A stretch of 64,000 bases of DNA from Deltaproteobacteria bacterium RBG_16_49_23 (lineage in GTDB: Bacteria > Desulfobacterota > BSN033 > UBA1163), in contig MGQQ01000104.1 of the NCBI GenBank assembly GCA_001798855.1, positions 1,093 to 65,092 of the forward strand, read 5' to 3'. This document shows positions 6,958-21,443 of this stretch, piece by piece (the first letter of the stretch is position 1; each line of letters starts with the position of its first letter). The position numbers and the translations under genes are program-made. The notes below the pieces were generated by a model. It was not told the DNA's origin. It searched no databases and was given only the letters and a program-made list of their open reading frames with translations.

Positions 6958-6997
6958 AAAATGAATTGTGACTTCTCATTGGATTTATTGCAAGAGG

Positions 6998-7245: not shown

Positions 7246-7252
7246 AAGATTG

Positions 7253-8089
7253 TCAGCGGGATTTAATCTTAAGGTCTTTCATCTTTGTTCGAAGGGTGTT
7301 GCGATTGATCCCCAGAAGCCGGGCGGCAGAGGTCTGAACATGACCGACCTTTTCCATCGCCGATTTGACCAGGATCTTTTCCACGAGTGAAATGATATCG
7401 TCAAGAAGGCCGGTCCTGCTCTTCAACTCCACATAGGGATCAATCCTGTTTAACACCTCTGTCAATCTCTCTTCGAGTACCTCTTCCAATAAAGAAGTTT
7501 TCAATTTTAATTTTCTCGATCCGGCGTGATGTTCCTCTTTCTTCAAATGGTAATTCCTGATGGTTGGGGAGAGGATGGCCGAGAGAACGGACAGGAAATG
7601 GAAATCTTCAGCGAATTCGTTCCTGGCCCCATAGAGAGGGTTGATGTTCATGGCTCCGATGGTTTCACCCTCAACGACGAGAGGGATACAGAGCAACGGC
7701 GGCTGGATTTTGTTTATTTGTTTTGAACTCTTAACGGCTTCCTCATAAAGGGGTTCCTGGTTTACATACTGAATGGGCATGGGTTGCCGTGATCGCAGGA
7801 CCTCGCCGATGACCCCTTTTCTGCTATGACAATGATGGGGATGATTTTCCATTTCGATTCCATAAAGGGCTTCGACATGGAGCAAGTCCTTCTTGACGTC
7901 TCGCAGGATAATCGCTGCATAATCAACGGGAAAATATTGTGAGAGGGTAGCCAATACCCCAAGAAAATATTCCTGAAGTTGAATCTGGGGGGGAAGCAAG
8001 GAGATTTCGTAGAGGCTTCTCAGCTCGGGATTGGTTCGGGGCTTGGCAATTAATGAAGAGGACATTTTTGACTCCTCAATCTTATTCAA
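7253..8089 (-). CDS. GAF-domain transcriptional regulator with C-terminal Fis-type HTH and no AAA+ domain
   Basis: C-terminal TSAARLLGINRNTLRTKMKDLKI matches an HTH_8 helix-turn-helix. The N-terminal ~170 aa are GAF-like. No Walker motifs. Confidence 0.6.
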   Translation of the reverse strand: MNKIEESKMSSSLIAKPRTNPELRSLYEISLLPPQIQLQEYFLGVLATLSQYFPVDYAAIILRDVKKDLLHVEALYGIEMENHPHHCHSRKGVIGEVLRSRQPMPIQYVNQEPLYEEAVKSSKQINKIQPPLLCIPLVVEGETIGAMNINPLYGARNEFAEDFHFLSVLSAILSPTIRNYHLKKEEHHAGSRKLKLKTSLLEEVLEERLTEVLNRIDPYVELKSRTGLLDDIISLVEKILVKSAMEKVGHVQTSAARLLGINRNTLRTKMKDLKIKSR

Positions 8090-8260
8090 TCTTCACAAGG
8101 TGATCATTTGGGTTTAATGGGTATTCCGAGGAAAAATTACCAGACTAATTTAATCAAAATAAAGTCAGATTTCAAGATAATTTTGAGGATTTTTATATTC
8201 TTATGACAAGGGTGCTTTTGACTTGCAGTCCGTTGGTTAATTCATTAAAATGCACATCGT

Positions 8261-9205
8261 ATGGCCGAACGGATTGAAGGGGGTCAGCCCCGGCTGGTCA
8301 TCCTGCTTGGTCCGACCGGAGCGGGGAAGTCGGGCCTGGCCATCGAACTGGCGGAAGCGTTTGGGGGTGAAATCCTCAATGCCGATTCGATGCAGGTCTA
8401 CCGTTATATGGATATCGGCACAGCCAAGCCGACACCGGAGGAACGGCAGAGGATTAAGCACCATCTGGTTGACCTGGTTACTCCCGACCAGCCCTTTCAT
8501 GCAGGCCTCTATCGGACACTCGGGAAAAAGACCATTGATTCATTACATCGAAAAGAGACACCCATCTTTGTCACAGGAGGGACCGGTCTCTATATCAAAG
8601 CCCTGACGCAGGGGCTCTTCGCAGGCCCTAAAATCAATCCCGCCGTTCGAGAGAAGTTGAAGCACGAAGCAGGGGAGAAAGGGGGATACCTCCTTTATCG
8701 TAGATTGAGAGAAGGGGATCCGGAAGCCGCCGCCCGTATTCATTCCAATGATTTATTTCGGATCATACGGGCCCTCGAAGTCTTCGAATCAACCGGCATG
8801 CCTATCTCCTTCTTCAGGAACCAGCATCGGTTTGGTGATCGGCCTTATCTCACTTTGAAGATAGGCATTGAAATAGACAGGGAAAGACTATACCGCCGGA
8901 TTGAGGAGAGGGTGGACCGGATGATCGAGAGAGGCCTCCTTCAGGAAGTGAAAGGATTGCTGGAGATGGGTTACGGACCGGCATTGAAGCCGATGCAGAG
9001 TCTGGGTTATAAACAGATGCTGCAATTTCTTTCGAACCAATTAGAGTGGGATGAGGCCGTGAGACAGATGAAGAGAGATACCCGCCATTACGCCAAGCGG
9101 CAATGGACATGGTTTAAGGCGGACAGAGAGGTCATCTGGCGGGACGCATCCACTGATCGAGCGAAGATATTTGAGGAGGTCAAGTCTTTTCTGAGAGAGC
9201 CCTGA
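8261..9205 (+). CDS. miaA: tRNA dimethylallyltransferase MiaA
   Basis: LVILLGPTGAGKSGLAIELA P-loop followed by DSMQVYRYMDIGTAKP. Confidence 0.92.
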   Translation: MAERIEGGQPRLVILLGPTGAGKSGLAIELAEAFGGEILNADSMQVYRYMDIGTAKPTPEERQRIKHHLVDLVTPDQPFHAGLYRTLGKKTIDSLHRKETPIFVTGGTGLYIKALTQGLFAGPKINPAVREKLKHEAGEKGGYLLYRRLREGDPEAAARIHSNDLFRIIRALEVFESTGMPISFFRNQHRFGDRPYLTLKIGIEIDRERLYRRIEERVDRMIERGLLQEVKGLLEMGYGPALKPMQSLGYKQMLQFLSNQLEWDEAVRQMKRDTRHYAKRQWTWFKADREVIWRDASTDRAKIFEEVKSFLREP

Positions 9206-9248
9206 GGAAATTGCCCGGGCTCTCTTGGAGGGAGGAGGGTAAGCATCT

Positions 9249-9476
9249 ATGATGAAGAATCAGATCAACGCGCAGGATCAATTTCTCAATAAGGTCCGGA
9301 GGGACCGGAGCCCTGTTGTTGTAGAGCTGACTGCCGGTCGCAAACTCGAAGGGGTCATTCACAGTTTTGACAACTTCTGTCTCATCCTTCGAAGCAAGGG
9401 GGATGAATTGATCTATAAGCACGCCATCTCCTCGATTACCACGGGTGAAAAAATAGAATTATTCGAAGAGAAATAG
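9249..9476 (+). CDS. hfq: RNA chaperone Hfq
   Basis: Sm-like sequence with the YKHAISS motif. It sits immediately downstream of miaA, the conserved position. Confidence 0.9.
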   Translation: MMKNQINAQDQFLNKVRRDRSPVVVELTAGRKLEGVIHSFDNFCLILRSKGDELIYKHAISSITTGEKIELFEEK

Positions 9477-9544
9477 GATGAAGGAGAATCCATTCCAAAT
9501 GTCAAAACAGGCCTCCCTCAGGGGGCCTATGGCCTGGACCGACC

Positions 9545-10132
9545 ATGATGAACGAACATGCTCTCAAACCAATACTTGAAGGCATTCTGTTTGTATCGGA
9601 TTCTCCGGTGAAACTGGATGCCCTGACAGAGATTCTCCACGAATGGGACAGGGAAGCCCTTTTAGATGGAATCCAGCAGGTCAAGAAGGGGTACGAGGAG
9701 GATTCGAGAGGGTTGGAACTGGTGGAAGTGGCAGGGGGGTACCAGTTTCGAACAAAACCTCAATGGGCTCAATGGGTCAACCGGCTGAAGAAATCGAAGC
9801 CGGTGAAATTAAGCCAATCCGCGCTGGAGACGCTGGCCATCATTGCCTACCGGCAACCCGTGATCCGGCCGACGATCGAGGAGATCCGGGGAGTGGATTC
9901 GGGATGGGTAATCCGGTCCCTCCTGGAGAAGGGGCTGATACGGATTGTGGGAAGGAAAGAGATTCCCGGACGGCCACTCATTTACGGGACCACCAAAACT
10001 TTTCTCGAACTCTTCAACCTCAATACCCTCTCCGACCTTCCCACCCTTAAGGAAGTCGAGTCCCCTCCGGAGCCGGAAACGATCCTCAAAGAAGAAGGCT
10101 CGCCGCCATCCGCAGATGAAGCGGAACAATAG
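9545..10132 (+). CDS. scpB: Segregation and condensation protein B ScpB
   Basis: ILEGILFVSDSPV and TLAIIAYRQPVIRPTIEEIRGV winged-helix repeats. Confidence 0.85.
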   Translation: MMNEHALKPILEGILFVSDSPVKLDALTEILHEWDREALLDGIQQVKKGYEEDSRGLELVEVAGGYQFRTKPQWAQWVNRLKKSKPVKLSQSALETLAIIAYRQPVIRPTIEEIRGVDSGWVIRSLLEKGLIRIVGRKEIPGRPLIYGTTKTFLELFNLNTLSDLPTLKEVESPPEPETILKEEGSPPSADEAEQ

Positions 10133-10140
10133 GAAACTCC

Positions 10141-10926
10141 ATGGGGTTTGAGAGAATTCAGAAGATACTGGCCAGGGCCGGGGTCGCCTCAAGAAGAGAA
10201 GCAGAGAGAATGGTGCTTGAGGGAAGGGTGGTGGTCAATGGCAAGGTTGTCGATCAGGCCGGTTTCAAAGCCGACCCCCTAAAAGATCATATCAAGGTAG
10301 ACGGGAAAAGGTTATTCCGGCCTGAACCCAAGATCACACTCCTCCTGAATAAACCAAAGGGTTATCTCTCCACCGTTAAAGACCCTGCAAGAAGGCCCAC
10401 GGTCATGGACCTGCTCAAAGGGGTAAAGTGGAGGGTCTATCCACTGGGACGCCTTGATTTCGATGCGGAGGGACTTCTCTTCCTGACCAATGATGGCGAT
10501 CTTGCCTACCAGCTCTCCCACCCGAAGTTTTCAATCCCCAGAACTTACTGGGCCAAAGTGGAAGGTGTTCCTGAGAAGGAGGAGTTGATGAGGTTGAAGA
10601 AGGGAGTGATGCTTGAAGATGGTATGGCGAGGGCTGTCTCTGTCCATATCCTCCGCCAGATGGAGAAGCATAGCTGGGTTGAAGCAGTGGTCACAGAGGG
10701 AAGAAACCGTCTGGTGAAGAGGATGTTTTCAGCCATTGGCCATCCGGTCCGCAAGTTGAAACGGATTCGATTCGGGCCGATCAGGCTGGGAAATCTCCCC
10801 GTCGGCCAGTGCCGCCCTCTTACCGATGAGGAGGTAGAAAAGCTTAAGCAAATCAGTTCGGAGTCCGGAGTTCGGAGAAAAAATGTTATGGCTCATCGTG
10901 GAAGTGAGTGGGTAAAAACCTCATGA
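10141..10926 (+). CDS. rluB: rRNA pseudouridine synthase (RluB/RsuA family)
   Basis: S4 domain RIQKILARAGVASRREAERMV followed by a GRLDFDAEGLLFLTNDG catalytic-Asp motif. Confidence 0.88.
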   Translation: MGFERIQKILARAGVASRREAERMVLEGRVVVNGKVVDQAGFKADPLKDHIKVDGKRLFRPEPKITLLLNKPKGYLSTVKDPARRPTVMDLLKGVKWRVYPLGRLDFDAEGLLFLTNDGDLAYQLSHPKFSIPRTYWAKVEGVPEKEELMRLKKGVMLEDGMARAVSVHILRQMEKHSWVEAVVTEGRNRLVKRMFSAIGHPVRKLKRIRFGPIRLGNLPVGQCRPLTDEEVEKLKQISSESGVRRKNVMAHRGSEWVKTS

Positions 10927-10949
10927 AGATATGGCTATCATCCTTATTA

Positions 10950-11015
10950 TCCCCCTTTGGAAAAGGGGGGCGACCTGCCTGCGCGAAGCCGCTTCGGCGA
11001 AGGCAGGGGGGGGAT
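10950..11015. repeat. Repeat family A element (ccccctttggaaaagggggg plus the cctgcctgcgcgaagccgcttcggcgaaggcagg hairpin)
   Basis: The cctgcctgcgcgaagccgcttcggcgaaggcagg module recurs at 24488, 27528, 45065 and 52620. Confidence 0.7.
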
Positions 11016-11123
11016 TTTAAGAACAAATGTTTTCTAAGGTTCTTCGGTTTTTCGACAGGGAAGTCTTTGAGAGTACGGACGGAGTGATGGAAGGGATATG
11101 GAGTTGTTTATGATTTATAAAAT

Positions 11124-11190
11124 CTCCCCTTACCCCTCTTTTCCAAAGAGGGGTAAAAAAGAGAACTCTTTGTTAAAGAGGGGGTGAGAA
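11124..11190. repeat. Repeat family A element (cccctcttttccaaagagggg hairpin)
   Basis: Opens with aaaatctcccc. The hairpin matches other family A copies. Confidence 0.6.
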
Positions 11191-11278
11191 AAGGCAGAAA
11201 TGCCCCACTCGATTACGCGAAGAGCCATTTTTATAAACCGAACTAATCGCTCTGAACTCCTGACGAAAAGGTTTCAAA

Positions 11279-11851
11279 ATGATTACCGGCATCGAAATTA
11301 AGAGAAAGATGGTTCATCTGGCCACTCTGGTCATTCCAGCCGGCTATGGATTCACCTCCGATACAATCGTTCTGACTTTCCTCATCCCTTTCTTTTTCTT
11401 GTACCTTGTGGTCGATCTTCTTCGCCATTTTCACCCAGGATTGGCTTCCCTGTTCCGGAAGCATTTTTTCGGAAGGGTGCTCAGGGAGGCAGAGAAACCG
11501 ACGCTGATGGGCTCAACCTATTTCCTCTTTTCCTCCATCCTGACGATCCTCCTCTTTCCCAAGCCGATTGCCATTGCAAGTTTGCTGATCCTCATCCTCT
11601 CGGACACGGCGGCGGCTCTTGTGGGAAAAGGTTTTGGAAGAATTCCGGTCTTCGGGAAGACGCTTGAAGGGAGCATGGCCTTCTTCTTCTCCTCTCTTCT
11701 GATCGTCTGGATCTCTCCGGGTCTGGACCGGCTCTCAGGAAGTTTTGCCGCACTTGGAGCCGCGTTGATTGAGGCGCTTCCCATCCCGCTGGACGATAAC
11801 CTCACTATCCCTCTGGTTGCCGGGGCCATCATGTTTTTCGGAACGGGATAA
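11279..11851 (+). CDS. Polytopic membrane protein, CTP-transferase/dolichol-phytol kinase-like (CdsA/SEC59 superfamily)
   Basis: 190 aa with about 6 hydrophobic segments. The LSDTAAALVGKGFG motif resembles cytidylyltransferase-family motifs. Confidence 0.4.
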   Translation: MITGIEIKRKMVHLATLVIPAGYGFTSDTIVLTFLIPFFFLYLVVDLLRHFHPGLASLFRKHFFGRVLREAEKPTLMGSTYFLFSSILTILLFPKPIAIASLLILILSDTAAALVGKGFGRIPVFGKTLEGSMAFFFSSLLIVWISPGLDRLSGSFAALGAALIEALPIPLDDNLTIPLVAGAIMFFGTG

Positions 11852-12881: not shown

Positions 12882-13409
12882 ATGCGATTGGATAAGGGGC
12901 TGAGGGAAGTCTTAAAATTGGGGGTAAAGACGCTGGTCCTTCAGGAGGTTAGATACCTCCGGATGGAGCGGTCCTTCACTCCTGAGATTATACTGGACGA
13001 GGTTTCCCGGTCGATTGCGGAGACGAAGAGGGAGATCGTCGGGTTGACTCGGACCATCAGACCTCAGGAGAGGGCCTCTCTCCTGAGAAGAATGGCCCGG
13101 CAGGCGCTGGATGAAGAGATTGAACGGGCGATTCAACTGAGAAAGAATCGATGTCTCCGCTGTACCCATGGAAGATTTTACGATGAATGCGGAACGGCCT
13201 TTAAGTCTCTTCCAAGCGCTTCTAATCGTGTTTGGGCCATAGGGTGCGATCAGCTTCGTCCCGGCCTCAGAAAATCCTGCCGGAGATTTGTGGAAACCTC
13301 CACCGCCCCCTCACTCGGAGACCACCTTGATGAGATGAACCTCCTCTATGAATTCAGGGATTTGATCGATCGGATCAACGAAATCTGGAAGGACTACCTT
13401 ACGACATAA
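12882..13409 (+). CDS. Hypothetical Cys-containing protein
   Basis: 175 aa with CLRCTHG...C...C...C spacing that could bind a metal. No known family recognised. Confidence 0.4.
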   Translation: MRLDKGLREVLKLGVKTLVLQEVRYLRMERSFTPEIILDEVSRSIAETKREIVGLTRTIRPQERASLLRRMARQALDEEIERAIQLRKNRCLRCTHGRFYDECGTAFKSLPSASNRVWAIGCDQLRPGLRKSCRRFVETSTAPSLGDHLDEMNLLYEFRDLIDRINEIWKDYLTT

Positions 13410-13490
13410 CGCATAGCGCAGAGCGCTTAGCGCATAGCGTCTTAAATCCCAAAGAACAAATCCTAAATCAAATCCAATACTCAAACCTTC

Positions 13491-13685
13491 TTATTAATCA
13501 GTCCATAATAGAGAAGACATACTCTTCTGAAAATCTCCCCTAGCCCCTCTTTGCCCTCCGGGCCAGAGGCCCTATGGGCCGGCGGCCAAAGAGGGTATAA
13601 TTCCTCCCTTTGGAAAAGGGAGGTGAGGAGGGATTTTATAAAATAGTGTCGTTATTATTATGGACTGATTAATAACAAAAAGCTC
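13491..13685. repeat. Composite repeat: family H arm, family A GC-rich core, inverted family H arm
   Basis: ttattaatcagtccataatagagaagacata ... cccctagcccctctttgccctccgggcc...gggattttat ... ttattatggactgattaataa. Confidence 0.65.
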
Positions 13686-13772
13686 TCTTCCCTATTTTTT
13701 AAAGAGAGCTTTTAGATTTGGCTCTTTTTCTTATCGATTACCCTATGCGCCATGCTCTATGCGCTTTGCGTT

Positions 13773-16349
13773 TTAGGCGACTGCTTCTGCCACCAATTCC
13801 GTAATGTCCATCACCTTTATCTTGCCCTTCTTCTCCTTCCGGATTCTAGCGGCAGCCAGCTGGAGATTGCCCTTGCAGGCCGGGCAGGCGGAGACGATCG
13901 TATCCGCACCGACCTCAAGGGCTTCGAGACCTCGCTGATAGGCGATCTCGCCGGAGAGCTCGGTATTGAACGCTTTCATCCCTCCGCCACCCCCGCAACA
14001 TTTGGCCAGTAAACGGTTATTCTTGAATTCGATCAGCGTGACTCCGGGAACTTTCTTGATCAATTCTCTCGGAGGCTCGAAGATATTGAGATGGCGGCCA
14101 AGGTCGCACGGGTCGTGGTAGGCCACCTTCATCGCATTCCCATCCTTGAGCTTCAATTTCCCACTCTGAATCAATTGATCGAGGTAGTCGATTGCATGAA
14201 GCACCGGTGTATTGAAAGAGAGGTGTTTGGGATAAATCTCTTTAAAGGTCTTATAACAGCCTGCACAGGTGGTCATAATCTGCTTGGGTTGAATTTTGGA
14301 GAAAGCCTCGACATTCTTCTTTCCCACCTCCTTGAATTCCTCGGTCCCCACAAGGTAGGAGATATATCCGCAGCAATTTTCGTCTTTTCCCAGGGCGGTA
14401 TATGAGACTCCGGCTCTGTCGAGGATATTCATGAGATTGGGCACCAGGTTGATATCCTGGTAGGAGGCAACGCAGCCGGGAAAGAAGAGGATATCGACCG
14501 GCCCCTTCTTGGGTTGAAAAGTTGACGGATAGACATCGGTCCGCTTCTCCCTGGGTTCTCCGAAGGGGTTCCCGGTCGCTTTCAAATTCTGCATCAGTGT
14601 CTTATGGATTTCAGGAAGAAATCCGGCCTCGACCAGTTTCCGGCGTCCTGCTTCCACAATCTCAGAGACGACCACGCCGGCAGGGCAGGTCGACTTACAG
14701 TTCAGGCAGGTTGTGCAGAGGTAGAATTTTTCCGCCACCTCTTTGGAAGGCTCAAGCAACCCTTTCATCATATAGTAAGCCTGAATAACCCTTCCACGGG
14801 CGTTTTCCGATTCCAGACCCGTACGGGCATAAACCGTACAGCCTGCCCGGCAGAACCCGCAGTTGATGCAGGCAAAGATCTCGTTATCGACCGCCTGCCC
14901 GAAACTCTTGATCTGGTCCGGGGTGTCCACAAATTCTTGATACGTAAAATGGTCGAAAATATCTTTGGCAGCATTGTCAAAGCCCATTTTCCCCGGGTTG
15001 AGTATGTTCTTAGGGTCGAGCGCTTTCTTGATCGTTTTCATCACCTCATGGCTTAGCCCCAGCTCTTTATGAATAAAGGAGGCTTTGGCCACACCGATTC
15101 CATGTTCCGCCGTCAGGGTTCCTTTAAATTTTAAAGTGAGGTCAATAAACTCCTGAGCAATGGGCTTCACTTTTTCCCATTCCTTCTTATTCCGGCCGTC
15201 AATGATCAGGGTGGCATGGAGATTCCCATCGCCGATATGGCCGAAGATGGGGATGGGGAAGTCGTATTTATCGCGGATCTTCTGGAGCTCTCGTATCGTT
15301 TCCGGGATCTTGGACATGGGAACGCCAAAATCCTCCACAAAGGGGATCAGCTTTGCTCCTCTTCTAACTTTCGAAAGGGAAGGCACAAGACCCTGGCGTC
15401 CTGCCCACATCTTTAAGCGTTTTGCCGGGTCGTCATCCCACTGGTTGCCCAGGCCGTTGCATTCCTTTGAGATTCGATCGATCTTCTGGATGTTTTCTTT
15501 GACTGCCTGCTTGTTTCCATCCATCTCGATAAAAAGAAGGCATTCTACATTATCAGGAATATTGAGATCCATGGCCTTATTGACCACATCGATGGAGAGC
15601 CGGTCCAAAATTTCGCAAGAGGAGAGAGGGATGCCCGAGGTGATGATTTCTTCGGCCGCTTTCCCTGCGTCTTCGACCGAAGGAAACCGGGCCTGGGCAA
15701 AGGCAATATATTCCGGTACGGGGAGGACCTTGACCGTGACCTCCGTAATCACCCCGAGGGTTCCTTCGGCACGGCAGAAGAGATGGGCGAGATCGTATCC
15801 AGAAGAGGTTTTGGGAACAATTGAGCCCGTTTTCATGATTCTGCCATCTGCCAGAACAACCTCCAGGCCCATGATGTAGTCTTTGGTTGCGCCATATTTG
15901 ATCGCCCGGTTGCCGCTGGCATTGGTGGAGACCATCCCGCCAATGGAGGCAATGGTGGCGCTTCCGGGATCGGGTGGAAAGAAATGGGTAGGAGCAAGGG
16001 CGTTGTTCAAATGCTGGCAGATGACCCCCGGCTCCACAACAGCATAGCCATCCATTTTCTGGATCTCTTTGATCTTATTCATCCGGCTGACATCGAGGAT
16101 GATGCCCCCGAAACAGGCCAGGACAGCGCCGGTCGTGCTGGTTCCCGATCCCCTGGGGATGATCTTGATATCGTTTTCAGAGGCAAATTTGAGAATCTTT
16201 GACACCTCCTCGGTCGTCTTCGCAAAGACGATGGCATCGGGAATGCCCTCATGGACAGACATGTCCCGCGAAAAGCAGAGCCGTTCGATCTGATCCGTCT
16301 TCACATTCTTCTCGCCTACGATGTTGATCAATTCTTTGATGGTATCCAC
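13773..16349 (-). CDS. Fused FAD-linked oxidase (GlcD-like) and Fe-S/CCG-domain (GlcF/GlpC-like) oxidoreductase, YdiJ/D-2-hydroxyacid dehydrogenase-like
   Basis: N-terminal FAD_binding_4-like region (KIIPRGSGTSTTGA). The C-terminal part has CxxCxxCxxxCP ferredoxin motifs and CCG motifs (CCGGGGG). Confidence 0.75.
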   Translation of the reverse strand: MDTIKELINIVGEKNVKTDQIERLCFSRDMSVHEGIPDAIVFAKTTEEVSKILKFASENDIKIIPRGSGTSTTGAVLACFGGIILDVSRMNKIKEIQKMDGYAVVEPGVICQHLNNALAPTHFFPPDPGSATIASIGGMVSTNASGNRAIKYGATKDYIMGLEVVLADGRIMKTGSIVPKTSSGYDLAHLFCRAEGTLGVITEVTVKVLPVPEYIAFAQARFPSVEDAGKAAEEIITSGIPLSSCEILDRLSIDVVNKAMDLNIPDNVECLLFIEMDGNKQAVKENIQKIDRISKECNGLGNQWDDDPAKRLKMWAGRQGLVPSLSKVRRGAKLIPFVEDFGVPMSKIPETIRELQKIRDKYDFPIPIFGHIGDGNLHATLIIDGRNKKEWEKVKPIAQEFIDLTLKFKGTLTAEHGIGVAKASFIHKELGLSHEVMKTIKKALDPKNILNPGKMGFDNAAKDIFDHFTYQEFVDTPDQIKSFGQAVDNEIFACINCGFCRAGCTVYARTGLESENARGRVIQAYYMMKGLLEPSKEVAEKFYLCTTCLNCKSTCPAGVVVSEIVEAGRRKLVEAGFLPEIHKTLMQNLKATGNPFGEPREKRTDVYPSTFQPKKGPVDILFFPGCVASYQDINLVPNLMNILDRAGVSYTALGKDENCCGYISYLVGTEEFKEVGKKNVEAFSKIQPKQIMTTCAGCYKTFKEIYPKHLSFNTPVLHAIDYLDQLIQSGKLKLKDGNAMKVAYHDPCDLGRHLNIFEPPRELIKKVPGVTLIEFKNNRLLAKCCGGGGGMKAFNTELSGEIAYQRGLEALEVGADTIVSACPACKGNLQLAAARIRKEKKGKIKVMDITELVAEAVA

Positions 16350-16848
16350 GGTTTCCTCCCTTTCTAATAAATGTTAAGCACGAATATCGAAGCTCGAAAT
16401 TCGTTACAAATCCGAATGACCAAAATGCAAATGATCACTTTGTGATATTCTCTCCGCCCGGTTCTTTTTCAAAGAGGAACTTGAAATGGGGATCGAGATC
16501 TCTTGAATAGATCATATTATATGAATGCAATGCTAAAGTTGAAATGTCAACTGATAAAAGTTCTTTTTATCACAATGTATTCCGGGGAGAAACCGTAACA
16601 CCCTGTTAAAGCTCGCAGGGCAAGGCCCTGCCGCAGGAGCCTTGCATGAGAGGCGACCCTAAAGGGCTGCCCTACGATTAAATTTATAAAATCGCTCAAT
16701 TTAGGTAAAAATTATTTGAGCAAAAATTCACAGGTTGTATATAATATTTATATAGTTCGGTCAAGCCCTTTTGGGGCCAGATAAAAAAAACTTGTTAACT
16801 TACGATTTTTATTGTATATAGCCACAAAAAAAGAAAGGAGGTCTTTTA

Positions 16849-17277
16849 ATGAAAATCGAAGGCTATCTATTTCCTGATGATCTGTACTACCACAAAGAAC
16901 ATTTCTGGGCCAGGGTTGAAGGAAATACGGTCACCGTGGGCACAACCGATTTTGCTCAGAAGTTAGCTGGCGATATTGTCTTTGTTGAGCTTCCCTCTTC
17001 GGGCAAAACGATTGAGCAAGGGAAACCCTGCGGGTCGATGGAATCTGGAAAGTGGGTCGGGAGAATCTATGCTCCTATCTCCGGAAAAGTGGAGTCCTCC
17101 AATGAGGAACTGGAAGATTCTCCTGAGCTGGTCAACGAAAGCCCCTACGAGAAAGGATGGATATTTAAGGTCAGCCCCTCCAATCTTCAGGAAGACCTCA
17201 AGAACTTAATGAAGGTGGATGCATTAGGAGATTTCATCAAGTCGGAAGTCGAGCGGGTAAAGAAGACGAAGGGATAG
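16849..17277 (+). CDS. Glycine-cleavage H-protein-like lipoyl-carrier protein
   Basis: GcvH fold signature (HFWARVEGNTVTVGTTDFAQ). The SMESGKWVGRIYAPISGKV stretch aligns with the ESVK lipoyl-lysine region of GcvH. Confidence 0.7.
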   Translation: MKIEGYLFPDDLYYHKEHFWARVEGNTVTVGTTDFAQKLAGDIVFVELPSSGKTIEQGKPCGSMESGKWVGRIYAPISGKVESSNEELEDSPELVNESPYEKGWIFKVSPSNLQEDLKNLMKVDALGDFIKSEVERVKKTKG

Positions 17278-17374
17278 AAACGTTTCTTAGAGAAATTGAC
17301 CTTGAATTGTATTATAGTTTTAGGGGGGCTGAATTAAAGAATCGACAGGGGTTTCAGCTCCTCTAAACTTTTAT

Positions 17375-18559
17375 ATGGATCTCTCCAAATTATCCCCCAA
17401 ACAGTTACTGGAAATCGATGCCTGCACCCGCTGCGGTGAGTGTCTCCGTTTCTGCCCGATTTACTCCCAGAAAGGCGAAGAGGGGATCAACCCGAGGGGG
17501 AAAATCCAGGCGATAAAAAAATTCATCAGGGCACAGTACGGCCTATTGGCAAAGCTGTTTGGGCCGAGGAAATTGAGCGAGGAGGATTTAAAGAAGTTTT
17601 CTGAAATGGTCTATCGGTGCACCCTGTGCGGAGAGTGCGGCTTACAGTGTCCTGTCTCCATCGATTCGAGAAGCCTCTGGCTTGCCCTGAAAGAGGTTCT
17701 GGTTGACCTGGGCCACTACCCCAAAAACATCGAACTGATGAAGAACAATGTCCTATCCAAGTACAACATCTCCGGCGAGGACAATGCTTTAAGAGTAGAA
17801 TGGCTGGAAGCCATGGAGGGTCTCCCGGATCACCAGTATCAAAAGGAGAAGGCAGAGGTCGTCTTTTTTGTAGGGTGTGTCTCCTCTTACTACCCCATGG
17901 CTCACAAAATTCCTCAAAGTTTTATCAGGATTCTGGATCGTTTAAAGATCGATTTTACCCTTCTGGGAGGGGCGGAGTGGTGTTGCGGGTTTCCCCTCAT
18001 CGGTGCGGGTTTCAAAAAAGAGGTTCAGAAGTTGATCCGGCATAATATCGAAGGGGTAAAAGAGAAAGGGGCGGATTCTGTCATCTTCTCCTGCCCTTCG
18101 TGTTACCATACCTGGCATGAGGATTATAAGACCGATTTAAAACTCTTCGATTCCACACAATTTATTTTAAAGCTGATTCAAGAGGGAAGGATTTCGTTTA
18201 AAGAGGGAAGGGTAAAGGTCACCTATCATGATCCCTGTGACCTGGGAAGGGCCAGCGGCATCTACGAAGCTCCCAGAGCGATTCTTCGGGCCATGCCAGG
18301 GGTGGAATTAGTTGAACTGCCTAACCATGCGGAGAAGTGTAAGTGCTGCGGCGGAGGAGGCCTTCTTGAAATGGTCGACCCAGAACTGGGAGCCGCTCTT
18401 GCCAGAGAGAAGATCAAGGAGATTCAAGGAACCGGAGCAGAGCTCGTGGTTACTTCCTGCCAGCAGTGTGTCCGGACCATCCTATCCACTTCTCGAAGAA
18501 TGAAAATTCCATTAAAGACCTCCTACATCACGGAATTCGTTCTGAAGCAGATGGCGTAA
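17375..18559 (+). CDS. HdrD/GlpC-like Fe-S protein with two [4Fe-4S] motifs and two CCG domains
   Basis: CTRCGECLRFCP and CTLCGECGLQCP ferredoxin motifs. CCG domains are VGCVSS...EWCCGFP and SCPSCYH...CKCCGGGG...SCQQC. Confidence 0.75.
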   Translation: MDLSKLSPKQLLEIDACTRCGECLRFCPIYSQKGEEGINPRGKIQAIKKFIRAQYGLLAKLFGPRKLSEEDLKKFSEMVYRCTLCGECGLQCPVSIDSRSLWLALKEVLVDLGHYPKNIELMKNNVLSKYNISGEDNALRVEWLEAMEGLPDHQYQKEKAEVVFFVGCVSSYYPMAHKIPQSFIRILDRLKIDFTLLGGAEWCCGFPLIGAGFKKEVQKLIRHNIEGVKEKGADSVIFSCPSCYHTWHEDYKTDLKLFDSTQFILKLIQEGRISFKEGRVKVTYHDPCDLGRASGIYEAPRAILRAMPGVELVELPNHAEKCKCCGGGGLLEMVDPELGAALAREKIKEIQGTGAELVVTSCQQCVRTILSTSRRMKIPLKTSYITEFVLKQMA

Positions 18560-18606
18560 ACGTTATTTAACAGTCTCAAAATAGTTAAGGCATCGATTTG
18601 TAAAAT

Positions 18607-18678
18607 CCCTCCTAACCTCCCTTTTCCTAAGGGAGGGATTACCCCTCTTTGGCAAAGAGGGGGGAGGGGAGATTTTCC
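18607..18678. repeat. Repeat family A element
   Basis: aaaatccctcctaacctcccttttcctaagggagggattacccctctttggcaaagaggggggaggggagattttcc. A near-copy without the second hairpin is at 51681-51728. Confidence 0.7.
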
Positions 18679-18730
18679 AATGTTTATGTCAATTCAATTT
18701 TGAGATTGTTAATACATCAAGAGTGTTTTT

Positions 18731-19573
18731 ATGGATAAACACACCGTTTTTTATGCCATGTTCATTCCTTCCATGCTCCTTTTTCTCCTGGGAATGTGGT
18801 TCAGAGTAAGCCTTTATCTGCACGGAACATTGGAGGGTGCGGAAGGCCTGGGTGCATGGGGAAAGGTGAGGGTTCTTTCAGGGAGAGGATGGAAGGGCTT
18901 CTGGAATAGACCCTGCTGGTATATGAGGACTCTTGTCGTTGAGGTGATCTTCCACAGGAAACTTTTCAATCAGTCCTTCTACCGCTGGCTTGCTCATACC
19001 CTGCTCGTCTTCGGATTTATTGCGACCTTTGCTGTTGATATGATCAAAGGGTTTACAACAGGGTATCTTGTCGAATGGAGCCGGTCGATTCCCTTCTTCT
19101 CTTTTGCCCGCACCTTTGAAACAGGACCGATTCGTCCTTTTCTCGACTTTTCCCTGGAATTTTTCAGTTTTCTTATCCTGGTCGGATGCGTGCTAGCCAT
19201 CATCCGGCGTTTCTTTATCCGGCCCGACCAATTGAAAACAGAGGAGGAAGACATCGTAACCCTGTTCTTCATCCTCTATCTGGAATTGTCCGGGTTTTTC
19301 ATCGAGGGATATCGAATTGCTCACCCTGAGGTCGTGGCTAATCAAGTCTACATGGCTAACTTCACGCCCGTTAGCGCTAACAACTGGATATCCTTCTTCG
19401 GATACTTCTTATCCTTTTTCATGAAAGGGATCCACCTCAATCCTCATTTTCTCTGGTACGCCCATGTCATCCCATGCCTTGTCTGGTTTGTTTACATCCC
19501 GCATTCCAAGCTGCTCCATATCTTCACTTCATCGGTGACAGTGATCGCAGACAGAGCGAAAGAAAAGCTTTAA
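18731..19573 (+). CDS. NarI/DsrM/HdrE-like integral membrane di-haem cytochrome b
   Basis: 280 aa with about 5 transmembrane helices and conserved His residues. It lies immediately downstream of the HdrD-like gene, the typical DsrMK/HdrDE arrangement. Confidence 0.55.
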   Translation: MDKHTVFYAMFIPSMLLFLLGMWFRVSLYLHGTLEGAEGLGAWGKVRVLSGRGWKGFWNRPCWYMRTLVVEVIFHRKLFNQSFYRWLAHTLLVFGFIATFAVDMIKGFTTGYLVEWSRSIPFFSFARTFETGPIRPFLDFSLEFFSFLILVGCVLAIIRRFFIRPDQLKTEEEDIVTLFFILYLELSGFFIEGYRIAHPEVVANQVYMANFTPVSANNWISFFGYFLSFFMKGIHLNPHFLWYAHVIPCLVWFVYIPHSKLLHIFTSSVTVIADRAKEKL

Positions 19574-19665
19574 CCCCTCCCTACCTCCCAATCTAACGCC
19601 CCCATCCATCTTCCCCCTCTTAAGGTAAGAGGGGGAAGGGGAGTTATAAGGGGAGGCGAGGTGGG
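19573..19665. repeat. Repeat family A element
   Basis: cccctccctacctccc...ccccctcttaaggtaagagggggaaggggag. Confidence 0.55.
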
Positions 19666-19865
19666 GTTATGAATTTTTCTATCGATGGCACCAATGTAAG
19701 GACAATTTTAGAAGCTCTCGTCGATAACTTATTGTAATTTTAGAGAAAAAATTGATACTTGACAAAATAATATAATGATGATAAAGAATGTAAAAATTAT
19801 CACAAGCAATAAAAGTCTCCCTATTCCTCATGTTTTCAGGAGCAGGGAACCTAAAGGAGGATATT

Positions 19866-21443
19866 ATGACGGTCAGCAAATGGATGACAGCAGGAACGGT
19901 TCTGAAGATGATGGCCATGCAAAATCCGGATAAGCCCGGTGCGGCCGATAAGTTTCGAAAAATGACATTTAAGGAGTGGAATGATCGAAGTTGCCGGTTT
20001 GCCAACGCTTTGAATAAACTGGGCGTAAAGAAAGGAGAGCGCTTCGCCATCCTGGCCTATAACTGTGTGGAGTGGCTGGAATTCTATGCGGGTTCCTCCA
20101 AAGGAGGACAGGTGACTGTTCCGGTCATGTTCCGGCTTGCTCCCCCTGAAATCGAATACGTGGTGAAGCACTCCGATTCGAAGGCCTTCATCGTTGCAAA
20201 AGAGTTTGTTTCTGTTGTGAACTCCATTCGCAATAACCTTCCCAATATACCGCCCGCAAATTATATCTACTTTGGAGATGGTCAGACGCCGGACGGATAC
20301 CAGTCTTATGAATCGCTTCTTGCAAAGGCTTCCCCTGAAGAGCCGGATGTGGTGGTTGATGCAGAGGATATGTGGAACATTATGTATACCTCAGGGACGA
20401 CCGGCAAACCGAAAGGGGTTGTCAGGACCCACGAAGGGAATCTATCGCAGTATATCTTAAACGGAATCAATATGGGCTTAAGACCGGATGATTGTGTCAT
20501 GCTGGTTATGCCCATGTGCCATATCAATTCCATCTACTATTCTTTTACCTACACTTATGTGACGGGAAGGGTTTTTGTCTACAATATGATCAGTTTCGAC
20601 CCCATCGATCTGTTGAAGACGATCGAAAGGGAGAAGATCACCTTTACCTCTCTTGTCCCTACCCATTACATCATGATGCTCTCCCTTCCGGATGAGGTGA
20701 AGAAGAACATCGATGTCAGATCCATCCGGCAGCTTCTCATCTCCTCAGCACCTGCGCGAAAAGACACAAAGGTCGCCATTATGGATTATTTCAAGAATGC
20801 AGAGCTCTGGGAGGCTTATGGCTCAACGGAAGCCGGATTGGTGACCCTGCTTCGACCCGAGGAACAGTTTAAGAAGCTGGGCTCCATTGGAAGGGAGATC
20901 TGGGGGACAGACCGGATTAAAATTCTTGATGAAAATGGCAAGGAGGTCGAGAGAGGACAGGTGGGAGAGCTTTATTCGAGGACGCCTCATGTTTTCAAAG
21001 AGTACTGGAAGGACCCCGAGAAGACAAAAACGGTCTTCAAAGGGGAGTGGTTTACGGCAGGGGATATGGCCTGCCAGGATGAGGACGGTTATTTTACCCT
21101 GGTCGATCGAAAAGCAAATATGATCATTACCGGCGGAGAAAATGTCTTTCCTTCAGAGGTGGAGAATTTGCTGGGTTCCCATCCTGCCGTCAAATATGTG
21201 GCTGTCATCGGGATTCCCCATGAGAAATGGGGCGAGGCGATTAAGGCGATTGTCACCGTCCATCAAGGAAAGACGGTGACGGAGAAAGAACTGGTTGACC
21301 ACTGCCGGGGAAAGATCGCAGGATACAAAATTCCCAAGTCGGTCGATTTCATCAAGGACGAAGAGATGCCCATGACCCCGACCGGAAAGATCCTCCATCG
21401 CATTTTAAGGGAGAAATACGGGAAATGGAGCGATATGAAGTAA
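19866..21443 (+). CDS. AMP-forming acyl-CoA synthetase/ligase
   Basis: AMP-binding motif YTSGTTGKPKGV and the C-terminal GEWFTAGD...ITGGENV region. RBS aaaggagga lies before ATG 19866. Confidence 0.85.
   Translation: MTVSKWMTAGTVLKMMAMQNPDKPGAADKFRKMTFKEWNDRSCRFANALNKLGVKKGERFAILAYNCVEWLEFYAGSSKGGQVTVPVMFRLAPPEIEYVVKHSDSKAFIVAKEFVSVVNSIRNNLPNIPPANYIYFGDGQTPDGYQSYESLLAKASPEEPDVVVDAEDMWNIMYTSGTTGKPKGVVRTHEGNLSQYILNGINMGLRPDDCVMLVMPMCHINSIYYSFTYTYVTGRVFVYNMISFDPIDLLKTIEREKITFTSLVPTHYIMMLSLPDEVKKNIDVRSIRQLLISSAPARKDTKVAIMDYFKNAELWEAYGSTEAGLVTLLRPEEQFKKLGSIGREIWGTDRIKILDENGKEVERGQVGELYSRTPHVFKEYWKDPEKTKTVFKGEWFTAGDMACQDEDGYFTLVDRKANMIITGGENVFPSEVENLLGSHPAVKYVAVIGIPHEKWGEAIKAIVTVHQGKTVTEKELVDHCRGKIAGYKIPKSVDFIKDEEMPMTPTGKILHRILREKYGKWSDMK

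Follow-up and report, generated by a model that had tools for sequence, protein, structure and literature searches.

A lipoyl-protein-linked, Hdr-type membrane redox module proposed from a divergent bacterial locus and related gene clusters

Gene content and motifs of the divergent locus

Heterodisulfide-reductase-type (Hdr-type) iron-sulfur enzymes act on CoM-S-S-CoB in methanogens, and a locus of the uncultured anaerobic bacterium Deltaproteobacteria bacterium RBG_16_49_23 raises the question of which disulfide they act on in non-methanogens. In this locus, which lies in a 64,000-nucleotide stretch of contig MGQQ01000104.1 (hereafter the window), a GcvH-like protein is followed by an HdrD-like protein and a membrane cytochrome b, and a FAD-oxidase/CCG fusion is encoded divergently. 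The initial annotation proposed that the lipoyl disulfide of the GcvH-like protein is the substrate of a membrane-bound lipoyl-protein:quinone oxidoreductase of an unusual DsrMK-like type, which the fusion could feed with electrons from a hydroxyacid. ORF analysis together with Pfam and NCBIfam profile searches confirmed the underlying observation, as all four genes, their motifs and the AT-rich divergent spacer are present as described, and these are long ORFs with strong profile matches and not chance features. The features of the locus are the following:

12882..13409 (+): 175-aa Cys-containing ORF without a Pfam or NCBIfam match, convergent with the FAD-oxidase fusion; a possible accessory gene of uncertain membership.
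13773..16349 (-): 858-aa fusion of a GlcD-type FAD-linked 2-hydroxyacid dehydrogenase (residues ~30-455) with a full-length HdrD-like module (residues 490-858), here called FADox-CCG.
16350..16848: divergent spacer of 499 bp, with a GC content of 0.39-0.40 against 0.49 for the window.
16438..16515 (-): relic of the first 26 codons of an hdrC gene (MIYSRDLDPHFKFLFEKEPGGENITK, then a stop), lying, together with the upstream block to ~16575, between the FADox-CCG start and gcvH.
16590..16680 (no strand assigned): GC-rich structured element inside the AT-rich spacer.
16781..16848 (+): conserved gcvH leader/promoter block.
16849..17277 (+): 142-aa H-protein of a "GKW-type" subfamily, with predicted lipoyl-lysine K68 (codon AAG at 17050-17052).
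17375..18559 (+): 394-aa HdrD-like cytoplasmic subunit.
18731..19573 (+): 280-aa NarI/HdrE/EMO-type membrane cytochrome b (CytB) with about five TM helices.
19830..21443 (+): 537-aa AMP-binding acyl-CoA-ligase-type enzyme (AMP-binding, 4.7e-80), a constant neighbour whose membership in the system is uncertain.

The 858-aa protein matched FAD_binding_4 (3.8e-42), FAD-oxidase_C (3.5e-64), Fer4_8 and two CCG stretches (2.2e-31), and its C-terminal half is 32% identical to the HdrD-like protein over 393 aa (E 1e-49). Its description as YdiJ-like in the initial annotation holds for domain architecture only, since the YdiJ model scored 245 bits against a cutoff of 1350 and the closest model was GlcD (412.6 against 567.9). 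The HdrD-like protein matched Fer4_8 and two CCG stretches (1.7e-34), and no signal peptide or transmembrane domain was noted in it, although without an explicit scan for either. Both CCG proteins carry two CxxCxxCxxxC motifs, corresponding to cubane [4Fe-4S] clusters, and two complete C-X32-35-CC-X34-36-CxxC motifs for non-cubane clusters. The best PDB match of the HdrD-like protein was EtfD (9ojn, E 1.3e-36), but Cys204 is kept where EtfD has Thr539. According to PMC13083937 and bioRxiv 10.64898/2026.08.18.745454, catalytic Hdr keeps both motifs while the ETF-oxidising EMO/EtfD enzymes do not.

The cytochrome b was recognized by Nitrate_red_gam (PF02665) with 26.0 bits against a gathering score of 22.9. 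An AF2 model (pLDDT 68.7, pTM 0.67) compared with Foldseek gave EtfD (prob 1.00) and NarI (prob 0.97-0.99) as top hits. Only H89, H245 and H263, the proposed haem ligands, are conserved across 25-51% identical homologs, a pattern of the HdrE/EMO type that equals H87/H233/H251 of SaEMO (bioRxiv 10.64898/2026.08.18.745454), and a menaquinone site is proposed in this subunit. The protein belongs to a tight clade with a large gap to other relatives. The membrane pair is closer to HdrDE/EMO-EtfD than to DsrMK, which amends the initial annotation.

The 142-aa protein matched GCV_H (6.5e-44) and scored above the cutoffs of TIGR00527 (143 bits against 115.85) and PRK01202. K68, within SMESGKW, aligns with the lipoyl-lysine of the E. 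coli and T. thermophilus H-proteins, but E. coli Glu-14, Ser-67 and Asp-68, which hold and release the aminomethyl arm in canonical H-protein (PMC7733448), are replaced by Phe, Gly and Arg. ESGKWVGR, in the form E(S/T)GKW(V/L)G(R/K), was found in all 55 GcvH copies with a complete match in loci of the related genomes described below. Furthermore, in 43 independent metagenome sequences the position of E. coli Glu-14 is never Glu, although it was not constrained by the search pattern. In Caldisericia the GKW-type gene coexists with a canonical gcvH-gcvPA-gcvPB operon.

Conservation of the linkage between GcvH and CCG/Hdr modules

To investigate whether this arrangement is conserved, we compared loci (numbered L001 onwards) from 47 related species genomes, referred to as the clade, and from more distant lineages. 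Conserved linkage to the Hdr-like genes and conservation of the lysine had been named beforehand as the points on which the idea would stand or fall, and both held, as the linkage persists through rearrangements in the 47 genomes and K68 is invariant. In 37 of 41 informative clade loci (about 90%) a CCG protein is encoded within 10 kb, usually in the next gene, in at least seven architectures. The HdrD plus cytochrome b trio is only one variant, occurring in 13 of 47 species, so that the conserved unit is GcvH plus some CCG/Hdr module. In sister genomes the same GcvH is paired instead with HdrABC(-MvhD), NuoEF-Fdh-HdrABC or Mo-pterin/NrfD/CCG modules, and CytB occurs with FADox-CCG and without HdrD in L001-L003 and L023. 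FADox-CCG is 82-86% conserved in nine clade loci, and the 175-aa ORF co-occurs with it at 51-59% identity in L001-L004, L012, L021, L023, L024 and L050. The clade loci share ancestry and are thus not independent observations, and four of them (L018, L030, L043 and L046) have no CCG protein within reach, three of which place GcvH next to a formate-hydrogenlyase-like module with a gap of 300 nt or more. The AMP-binding gene is adjacent to gcvH or to cytB in most clade loci where that flank is present.

GcvH changes strand to lead whichever module is present, with gaps to the next gene of 14-100 nt in many loci, and it keeps its own leader. In blastn comparisons this leader is 75-93% identical to the region directly upstream of gcvH in more than 35 clade loci of all arrangement types; read by eye, it contains TTGTTA-17 nt-TATATA (16792-16820) and a GGAGG ribosome-binding site, while predicted promoter-like sites lie at 16716-16756. 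The same analysis showed that 16436-16575 is 72-84% identical to the hdrC 5' end plus upstream region of the HdrCBA-type loci L005, L010, L011, L013, L015, L017, L019, L054 and L056, and tblastn with L005 HdrC gave 58% identity over 26 aa (E 3e-8). This hdrC relic shows that a module was swapped at this site. The GC-rich element has an MFE of -36.4 kcal/mol (z = -2.77; 0 of 200 shuffles fold as well), but it was not conserved in related loci, not repeated in the window and matched no Rfam family.

Independent lineages whose GcvH is 43-53% identical build the same parts into single operons, often together with lipoate-protein ligases (LplA): CytB-FADox-FeS/CCG-GcvH-HdrD-LplA in L096; FADox-CCG-GcvH-HdrD-CytB in L077; Lpd, then an LplA/radical-SAM fusion, then c-haem-CytB-GcvH-HdrD in L083 and L094; Lpd-GcvH-LplA-FADox-CCG in L108; fumarase-GcvH-LplA-HdrCB-HdrA-FrdBA in Aerophobetes; and GcvH-LplA-LutA/B-like in L055. 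An ANL-family enzyme, only 25% identical to the AMP-binding protein of the window, also follows HdrD in L083 and L094. In L062 an H-protein gene overlaps an Lpd-type disulfide oxidoreductase gene, showing the simplest form of the same pairing. However, only 15 of 27 non-clade loci of at least 5 kb show LplA, CCG or Lpd, and the Caldisericia GKW-type genes have no CCG neighbour. With respect to the glycine cleavage system, no gcvT, gcvP, lpd or lipoylation gene was found in the Pfam-scanned ORFs of the window, and no gcvP, lpd, lipoate ligase or lipoate synthase lies within 10 kb in the clade loci, a search that did not include gcvT.

A proposed lipoyl-protein-centred redox system and its alternatives

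All these data suggest that the locus encodes a lipoyl-protein-centred, Hdr-type redox system, a reading to which we assign a probability of roughly 0.55. The interpretation of the initial annotation is thus partly supported: its core idea, that lipoyl-GcvH is the redox partner of the CCG enzymes, is supported by comparative genomics, without biochemical or expression evidence. In this view, GKW-type GcvH, through a lipoyl group on Lys68, would serve as a protein-bound dithiol/disulfide carrier, the counterpart of CoM-S-S-CoB in methanogens or DsrC in sulfate reducers. The HdrD-like subunit would sit on the five-helix cytochrome b and connect the lipoyl/dihydrolipoyl couple to the menaquinone pool, whereas the FADox-CCG fusion would connect a 2-hydroxyacid/2-oxoacid couple to the same carrier and, in relatives that lack HdrD, may connect directly to the cytochrome b. 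The gene content, the cluster motifs, the altered arm-binding residues, the conserved and re-invented linkage and the linkage to lipoate ligases in other lineages are shown by our analysis, while lipoylation, docking of the lipoyl arm at the CCG site, quinone reactivity and the direction of electron flow are matters of inference. Standard potentials (lipoamide about -290 mV, menaquinone about -74 mV) favour flow from dihydrolipoyl to menaquinone at the membrane module, and hydroxyacid-to-lipoyl transfer is uphill by about 100 mV at standard potentials, so the feeding direction suggested in the initial annotation is doubtful. In addition, the closest solved relative of both HdrD and CytB is EtfD, whose non-cubane clusters only relay electrons, and GcvH scores above the canonical GcvH equivalog cutoff, so a glycine-cleavage role is not excluded.

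An alternative that we consider unlikely is that FADox-CCG, with or without HdrD, docks on CytB as an ordinary membrane-bound D-lactate/glycolate:menaquinone oxidoreductase, GcvH being the housekeeping glycine-cleavage H-protein kept there by inherited synteny next to a variable energy-gene hotspot. In favour of this, GcvH passes the TIGR00527 and PRK01202 cutoffs, its position beside an AMP-ligase-secDF-rplM-rpsI-argC-mutS block is fixed across the clade, and the other flank is variable and in three loci holds the hydrogenase module with no CCG protein. CytB occurring with FADox-CCG in the absence of HdrD, and the HdrD paralogy of the C-terminal half of the fusion, also fit this view. Against it are the strand changes and short operonic gaps of GcvH, the replaced aminomethyl-binding residues and the absence of gcvT and gcvP within the limits given above. 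Furthermore, unrelated lineages place the same GcvH subtype between FADox-CCG and HdrD and add LplA, which synteny inheritance cannot explain.

Slightly less likely still, HdrD and CytB could form a split ETF:menaquinone oxidoreductase of the EMO/EtfD type that serves fatty-acid beta-oxidation together with the adjacent acyl-CoA ligase, in which the CCG clusters only relay electrons from ETF and GcvH is a bystander or has an accessory role. The EtfD matches of both subunits, in the case of CytB to the EtfD membrane domain, the three-His pattern and the constant acyl-CoA ligase neighbour are in line with this, as are L018, with acyl-CoA dehydrogenase-EtfB-EtfA directly upstream of GcvH-CytB, and L005 and L019, with an acyl-CoA dehydrogenase nearby. 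However, both CCG motifs are complete, whereas the characterised EMOs have lost a distal-cluster Cys, and etfAB is absent from the window and from 46 of 47 clade loci. This model does not explain the invariant GcvH at the head of the operon, the LplA fusions in L096 and L094, or GcvH pairing with soluble HdrCBA when HdrD and CytB are absent.

Equally unlikely is that the same chemistry serves glycine metabolism, with Hdr modules replacing the NAD-linked L-protein (Lpd) and coupling glycine cleavage or reductive glycine synthesis to quinone, ferredoxin or formate. In favour of this, the protein is an H-protein by profile, Caldisericia GKW-type genes sit beside gcvH-gcvPA-gcvPB, and the Lpd neighbours in L062, L094 and L108 show that these GcvHs are serviced by disulfide oxidoreductases. 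Against it, the aminomethyl cavity residues are replaced, no P-protein gene is linked in any of about 47 clade loci or in 25 of 27 non-clade loci (nor a T-protein gene in the Pfam-scanned ORFs of the window), and the operon partners are fumarase/Frd, hydroxyacid dehydrogenases and Hdr, not C1 enzymes.

Relation to known Hdr-type systems

The idea is not wholly new. In the established sHdr-LbpA system of sulfur oxidisers (Cao et al. 2018, PMC6067878), a GcvH-like single-lipoyl-domain protein is genetically tied to Hdr-like CCG proteins and, in many lineages, to a dedicated lipoate-protein ligase, but sHdr is soluble, serves sulfur oxidation and is linked to DsrE/TusA sulfurtransferases and radical-SAM LipS proteins, and LbpA has two extra conserved Cys. 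Here the protein has a single Cys and a different lysine context (GKW), there are no sulfurtransferases, and the partners include a membrane HdrD/cytochrome b and a hydroxyacid dehydrogenase fusion. HdrDE of cytochrome-containing methanogens shares the two-subunit architecture, in which a cytoplasmic subunit with two cubane clusters and two complete non-cubane sites sits on a five-helix NarI-type cytochrome b with a similar three-His pattern and links a membrane quinone-like carrier to a disulfide. Its substrate is CoM-S-S-CoB and its carrier methanophenazine, whereas in this bacterium the candidate substrate is a protein-bound lipoyl disulfide of much lower potential, so the favoured direction would be reversed.

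In DsrMK(JOP)-DsrC of sulfate reducers, a membrane cytochrome b plus a CCG subunit likewise acts on the sulfur centre of a small carrier protein that is also served by soluble Hdr-type complexes. However, the HdrD-like protein scored 105 bits against a cutoff of 400 on the DsrK model, no dsr genes are in the window, and the proposed carrier is a lipoyl H-protein, not DsrC with two Cys. EMO/EtfD ETF:(methyl)menaquinone oxidoreductases (PDB 9OJN; bioRxiv 10.64898/2026.08.18.745454; PMC13083937) share the module order (NarI-like TM, HdrC-like, non-cubane domain) and the His triad, but they are single fused polypeptides that take electrons from ETF, while here there are two polypeptides and etfAB is not linked except in L018. 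TfrB of the thiol:fumarate reductase TfrAB of methanogens was the best-scoring NCBIfam model for both CCG proteins (176-178 bits, below the cutoff of 385). The window has no fumarate reductase flavoprotein, but the Aerophobetes operons, which combine GKW-GcvH, LplA, HdrCB and FrdAB-like genes, follow the same logic of a thiol donor feeding fumarate reduction, although the thiol would be dihydrolipoyl-GcvH and not CoM-SH/CoB-SH.

Lastly, gcvH was observed inside an Ehe-HdrBC-SdhA-HdrA2B2C2-GcvH cluster of Culexarchaeia, in an organism without CoM/CoB, with the speculation that GcvH carries the unknown disulfide (Kohtz et al. 2022, PMC9723716). That case is archaeal and hydrogenase-linked and rests on a single-lineage observation, without subfamily definition, lipoate-ligase linkage or a membrane HdrD/cytochrome b. 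Most likely, lipoyl-GcvH is the dithiol/disulfide carrier that links these modules to menaquinone, and the related gene clusters in several phyla suggest that the lipoyl protein is the long-unknown disulfide on which Hdr-type enzymes act in non-methanogens.

The redox genes and their intergenic region

The four genes described by the initial annotation were all found in place, together with their motifs and the AT-rich spacer between the divergent transcripts, and the observation on which that annotation rested is confirmed. The window matches a MAG named 'Deltaproteobacteria bacterium RBG_16_49_23', with the membrane protein 100% identical. The features of the locus that are referred to in what follows are:

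12882-13409: a 175-aa Cys-containing ORF with no family match
13525-13636: a weak Moco-riboswitch-like match
minus strand: an 858-aa protein with FAD_binding_4, FAD-oxidase_C, a dicluster ferredoxin domain and two CCG stretches (FADox-CCG)
16350-16848: the divergent spacer, 499 bp
16438-16575, minus strand: a relic of the hdrC 5' end (16438-16515) plus its upstream region
16590-16680: a GC-rich structured element
16781-16848, plus strand: the gcvH leader
142-aa protein: a GCV_H protein (GcvH), with the predicted lipoyl-lysine K68 encoded at 17050-17052
394-aa protein: a dicluster ferredoxin domain and two CCG stretches (HdrD-like)
280-aa protein: a match to Nitrate_red_gam (CytB)
19830-21443: an ANL-family AMP-binding ligase

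Both CCG proteins carry two CxxCxxCxxxC motifs and two complete C-X32-35-CC-X34-36-CxxC motifs, as expected for HdrD/HdrB-type proteins. In the HdrD-like protein the ferredoxin cysteines lie at 17/20/23/27 and 82/85/88/92 and the CCG motifs at 168-243 and 288-365, and the fusion has equivalent sets. Residues 490-858 of the fusion are a full-length paralog of the HdrD-like protein (32% identity, E 1e-49). The fusion had been called YdiJ-like, but this holds for its architecture only, since the YdiJ model scores 245 against a cutoff of 1350 and YdiJ orthology was rejected on this basis. The closest curated model is GlcD (TIGR00387), which also scores below its cutoff (412.6 against 567.9), so that neither model reaches the level at which a substrate could be assigned. 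The 175-aa ORF at 12882-13409 co-occurs with the FADox-CCG gene in nine related loci.

The spacer has a GC content of about 0.39-0.40, against 0.49 for the window, and holds a relic of the first 26 codons of hdrC, followed by a stop, on the minus strand together with the hdrC upstream region. This means that an HdrCBA module was replaced by the FADox-CCG gene at this exact site, and the FADox-CCG gene now lies downstream of the former hdrC control region, about 90 nt downstream of the old hdrC start. In addition, a block of about 60 nt directly upstream of gcvH (16781-16841) is conserved (75-93%) in more than 35 loci of all arrangement types related to this one, indicating that gcvH carries its own leader or promoter whatever module follows. 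Read by eye, the leader contains TTGTTA-17-TATATA and GGAGG, and it matches no Rfam family. By contrast, the GC-rich structured element at 16590-16680 (z = -2.8 against shuffles) is not conserved in relatives and is not repeated in the window. An Rfam scan of 13300-20000 found nothing near gathering scores; the Moco-riboswitch-like match at 13525-13636, downstream of the FADox-CCG stop, scores 22.8 bits against 36 (E 0.058) and is probably due to chance. Terminator-like sites are not enriched (9 found, 11.2 expected) and say nothing about operon structure. A search with the proteins at the two window edges returned only a 5-kb contig for one of them and no record for the other.

A distinct H-protein subtype and its genomic context

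The 142-aa protein passes the curated cutoffs for glycine cleavage H-proteins (PF01597, 149 bits; TIGR00527, 143.1 against 115.85; PRK01202, 155 against 117). K68 aligns with the lipoyl-lysine at the hairpin position of the solved E. coli and T. thermophilus H-proteins, and it is invariant in the three sets of sequences that we compared (26, 55 and 43 sequences). Its surroundings differ, however, since canonical ESVK-A-A-S-D is ESGK-W-V-G-R and canonical HEW near the N-terminus is HFW. In E. coli H-protein, Glu-12 and Glu-14 lock the aminomethyl nitrogen in the cavity, while Ser-67, Asp-68 and Tyr-70 guide its release (PMC7733448). Here Glu-12 and Tyr-70 are kept, but Glu-14 is Phe, Ser-67 is Gly and Asp-68 is Arg, and these replacements are invariant in a 26-sequence clade alignment apart from Tyr at position 19 in one clade locus (L033; loci recovered in our scans are numbered with the prefix L). 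The signature E(S/T)GKW(V/L)G(R/K), which we use to define a GKW-type subfamily, occurs in every clade GcvH copy with a complete match (55 of 55) and also in GcvH genes from Caldisericia and another lineage. In 43 metagenome sequences found through that motif, the Glu-14 position, which was not part of the search pattern, is never Glu and is M, F, L or Y in 41 of them.

In Caldisericia the GKW-type gene lies divergent from a canonical gcvH (ESVKAATD)-gcvPA-gcvPB operon, so it is a paralog that can coexist with a normal H-protein. These genomes carry three GcvH-like genes side by side (L057:9090-10399; also L058-L061, L063, L079 and L080): the canonical one heading gcvPA-gcvPB, a weak 122-aa GcvH-like gene (ETSKKGD) and the divergent GKW-type gene, followed by large ORFs (880-914 aa and others) that have no Pfam match and look like surface proteins. 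Regarding linkage to the glycine cleavage system, no gcvT, gcvP or lpd was found among the Pfam-scanned ORFs of the 64-kb window, and no GcvPA, GcvPB or Lpd lies within 10 kb in the clade loci. The protein is also not an LbpA of the sHdr sulfur-oxidation systems. It lacks the two strictly conserved Cys near the N- and C-termini that define LbpA (PMC6067878), having a single Cys (C61) that is also present in E. coli GcvH and absent from other GKW-type proteins, and no shdr genes, single-domain sLplA, radical-SAM LipS1/2 or DsrE/TusA sulfurtransferases were found in the window or the clade loci, although other lineages do link two-domain LplA genes.

The membrane subunit forms a tight clade: among 1.84 billion representatives at 50% identity there is essentially one full-length cluster, and the next relatives are at most 36% identical. 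A GcvH-centred scan of species-representative genomes returned 54 loci, 47 of them from the clade; all are uncultured MAGs labelled Syntrophaceae, Thermodesulfobacteriota or Syntrophorhabdus. In most clade loci where that flank is present, gcvH lies beside an AMP-binding ligase-secDF-rplM-rpsI-argC-mutS block, whereas the other neighbour varies.

Arrangements on the variable side of gcvH in the 47 clade loci
GcvH-HdrD-CytB: 13
GcvH-CytB without HdrD: 4
GcvH-HdrC-HdrB-HdrA: 10, plus 1 with an insert, plus 5 with a divergent HdrCB
GcvH-NuoE-NuoF-FdhA-HdrCBA: 4
GcvH-Mo-pterin/FeS/NrfD, followed where the contig is long enough by a 678-696-aa Fer4+CCG protein: 4
GcvH-FADox-CCG: 2
GcvH followed by a formate-hydrogenlyase-like module with no CCG protein: 3
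Locus ending at gcvH (L056): 1

In the GcvH-HdrD-CytB loci the divergent partner is either FADox-CCG or HdrCBA-FlpD. Counting complete CCG motifs, 37 of 41 informative loci have one within 10 kb, the exceptions being L018, L030, L043 and L046. In the last three of these (for example L030:11158-19334) gcvH is followed, after a gap of 300 nt or more, by an FdhA-like Mo-pterin protein, a Fer4_22 protein, HycI and Ech/formate-hydrogenlyase-type subunits, with no CCG protein within reach. We also considered that GcvH might be a static positional anchor, but this was rejected because it changes strand so that it leads whichever Hdr module is present, with gaps of 14-100 nt to HdrD, CytB or HdrC in many loci, and because it is rebuilt into operons in unrelated lineages. 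Some of the partner proteins are themselves unusual. In L005 (59-4510) and equivalents in L011, L013, L015, L017 and L019, the HdrA partner is a giant protein of 1344-1483 aa with an N-terminal Fer4_20/Pyr_redox_2 (GltD/NfnB-like) part, followed by FlpD, which is reminiscent of HdrL-type NAD(P)H-linked HdrA fusions. The 678-696-aa proteins next to Mo-pterin/FeS/NrfD genes (L021:3113-5170, L036:10365-12455, L041:15734-17770) have an N-terminal region of about 290 aa without Pfam match, followed by Fer4 and two CCG domains, and are possibly fused EMO/HmcF-like transmembrane modules.

Because the clade loci share ancestry, we searched metagenomes for the non-clade motif variant, which returned 46 stretches with GcvH 43-53% identical to that of the window. 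Several of them rebuild the same parts as single operons, and further loci show related pairings.

Gene order around GKW-type and related H-proteins outside the clade
L096: NarI-like CytB, GlcD-like FAD oxidase, Fer4+CCG, GcvH, HdrD-like, LplA-DUF116 fusion
L077: FADox, FeS-CCG, GcvH, HdrD, CytB
L083 and L094: Lpd-like, LplA-catalytic/radical-SAM fusion, multihaem-c/NarI fusion, GcvH, HdrD, AMP-binding enzyme
L108: Lpd, GcvH, LplA, FADox, FeS-CCG
Six or more loci, plus the NCBI-named Aerophobetes locus L111: malic enzyme, fumarase alpha/beta, GcvH, LplA, HdrC, HdrB, HdrA-like, FrdB-like, FrdA-like
L055: GcvH, LplA (overlapping), LutA-like CCG, LutB-like, Ldh_2
L110 (Altiarchaeales): GcvH with HdrC-like and CCG proteins and an LplA
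L062 (Bathyarchaeia): an H-protein overlapped by an Lpd-type oxidoreductase gene

The Aerophobetes-type operon (L067, L078, L081, L086, L104 and L111, for example L111:6511-15537), in which the fumarase is class I, looks like a lipoyl-protein version of thiol:fumarate reductase, and L069, L097 and L101 add methylmalonyl-CoA mutase and MeaB upstream. The fusions found next to GKW-type GcvH (L094:4425-7781 and L096:1011-2582) comprise a multihaem cytochrome c (c7/c3) joined to the NarI-like cytochrome b, an LplA catalytic domain joined to a radical-SAM domain, and LplA joined to DUF116. Furthermore, an ANL-family AMP-binding ligase follows the module both in the clade (19830-21443 in the window) and in the very distant lineage of L083 and L094 (L094:57-1853; 25% identity). 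It could represent fatty-acid activation linked to the module or, by analogy, a lipoate/octanoate-activating enzyme. The clade loci have no LplA nearby.

Neighbours of the GKW-type gcvH in the 27 non-clade loci of at least 5 kb
LplA-type ligase: 11
Complete CCG motif: 11
Fumarase: 10
Canonical gcvP: 2
Any of LplA, CCG or Lpd: 15

The association is therefore frequent and was re-invented in several lineages, but it is not universal.

The HdrD-like protein and the cytochrome b

The HdrD-like protein scores below every equivalog cutoff, TfrB being the best at 176 bits. Orthology to DsrK of DsrMKJOP was rejected, since the DsrK model (NF045796) scores 105.1 bits against a cutoff of 400 and no dsr genes were found in the window. 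The best solved relative is M. smegmatis EtfD (E 1.3e-36), with HdrB far behind. The EtfD and EMO papers provide a discriminator in this regard, as catalytic Hdr keeps two complete non-cubane sites while EtfD has Thr (Thr539) in place of one Cys and SaEMO lacks a Cys ligand (PMC13083937; bioRxiv 10.64898/2026.08.18.745454). The window protein keeps that Cys (Cys204; WCCG aligns with ETCTG), and the HdrD homologs in L077, L083, L094 and L096 also keep both motifs. In addition, EMO/EtfD enzymes are single fused polypeptides linked to etfAB and acyl-CoA dehydrogenase, whereas here there are two separate genes and no etfAB in the window, and only L018 has ACAD-EtfBA adjacent.

CytB matches the NarI family (PF02665) just above Pfam's gathering score (26.0 bits against 22.9), and a sequence search of the PDB with its profile gave no hit at E <= 1; only fold comparison gave relatives. 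The AF2 model has moderate confidence (pLDDT 68.7) and shows five long predicted helices, which fit five TM helices, plus two connecting helices after TM I and TM IV, the layout described for EMO. Foldseek ranked the EtfD membrane domain (prob 1.00) and NarI (prob 0.97-0.99) first, but with E >= 0.018. Across homologs 25-51% identical only three His (H89, H245 and H263) are conserved, with 18-residue spacing between the last two, and H75 is clade-specific, while classical NarI has four His haem ligands, two on TM2 and two on TM5. The same triad is reported for SaEMO (H87, H233, H251) and modelled for HdrE. HdrDE/EMO-type thus describes the pair better than the DsrMK-type label of the initial annotation.

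A proposed lipoyl-protein partner for Hdr-type modules

The interpretation originally offered for this locus is supported only in part. Our analysis establishes the parts and their motifs, the altered arm cavity of the H-protein, the conserved and re-invented linkage to CCG modules, and the presence of lipoate ligases and Lpd as neighbours in other lineages. From these data we infer that GcvH is lipoylated, that its dithiolane is opened and closed at the non-cubane clusters of HdrD and of the FADox-CCG fusion, and that CytB exchanges electrons with menaquinone. We place the probability that lipoyl-GcvH is the functional partner of the CCG modules at about 0.55. On textbook potentials (lipoamide about -290 mV, menaquinone about -74 mV) the membrane module should run from dihydrolipoyl to quinone, whereas hydroxyacid-to-lipoyl transfer would be uphill, since lactate/pyruvate is about -190 mV. 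The proposal that a hydroxyacid feeds electrons into the system is therefore its weakest link, and where HdrD is missing (clade loci L001-L003 and L023) the fusion may instead dock directly on CytB.

Three other explanations were considered, and each has some support. The locus could encode an ordinary hydroxyacid:quinone oxidoreductase with a bystander housekeeping GcvH, in line with the fixed synteny and the hydrogenase-type exceptions. Alternatively, the membrane pair could be a split EMO for beta-oxidation, as suggested by the EtfD similarity, the ligase neighbour and the L018 locus (4644-11558), where a sigma-54 activator, acyl-CoA dehydrogenase, EtfB and EtfA lie directly upstream of GcvH-CytB with no HdrD or CCG gene within 10 kb, which is the strongest hint for an ETF-linked (EMO-like) role of the cytochrome b. 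Hdr modules could also act as L-protein substitutes in glycine metabolism, a view supported by the Caldisericia context. None of them explains the LplA-containing operons in distant lineages together with the complete CCG motifs and the altered cavity.

The sHdr-LbpA pairing is established in sulfur oxidisers (PMC6067878), and Kohtz et al. 2022 noted a gcvH inside an archaeal Ehe-HdrBC-SdhA-HdrA2B2C2 cluster and speculated that it carries the unknown disulfide (PMC9723716). Our searches of the paper library found no description of a bacterial membrane HdrD/cytochrome b paired with a GcvH, nor of the GKW-type subfamily. A broader possibility, which we regard as doubtful on present evidence, is that GKW-type lipoyl-GcvH may be the general, so far unidentified thiol/disulfide substrate (a bacterial heterodisulfide) of Hdr-like CCG enzymes in many non-methanogenic anaerobes. 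In this view one lipoyl protein would serve membrane HdrD-cytochrome b, bifurcating HdrABC-type complexes, TfrAB-like fumarate reductases, and GlcDF- and LutAB-type hydroxyacid dehydrogenases across Desulfobacterota, Aerophobetes, Altiarchaeales, WOR-3 and others.

Hdr-like CCG proteins are among the most abundant redox modules in anaerobic bacteria and archaea, but outside methanogens (CoM-S-S-CoB), sulfate reducers (DsrC) and sulfur oxidisers (LbpA) their substrate is unknown, as is stated explicitly for an archaeal case (PMC9723716). A recognisable H-protein subfamily that sits at the head of many different Hdr-type operons, often with its own lipoate ligase, gives a concrete candidate that is cheap to test. 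Since every database sampled currently annotates it as plain GcvH, metabolic reconstructions of these uncultured anaerobes may wrongly infer glycine cleavage and miss an electron-transfer hub. A quinone-linked dihydrolipoyl-protein oxidase would also be a new kind of energy-conserving entry point into the menaquinone pool.
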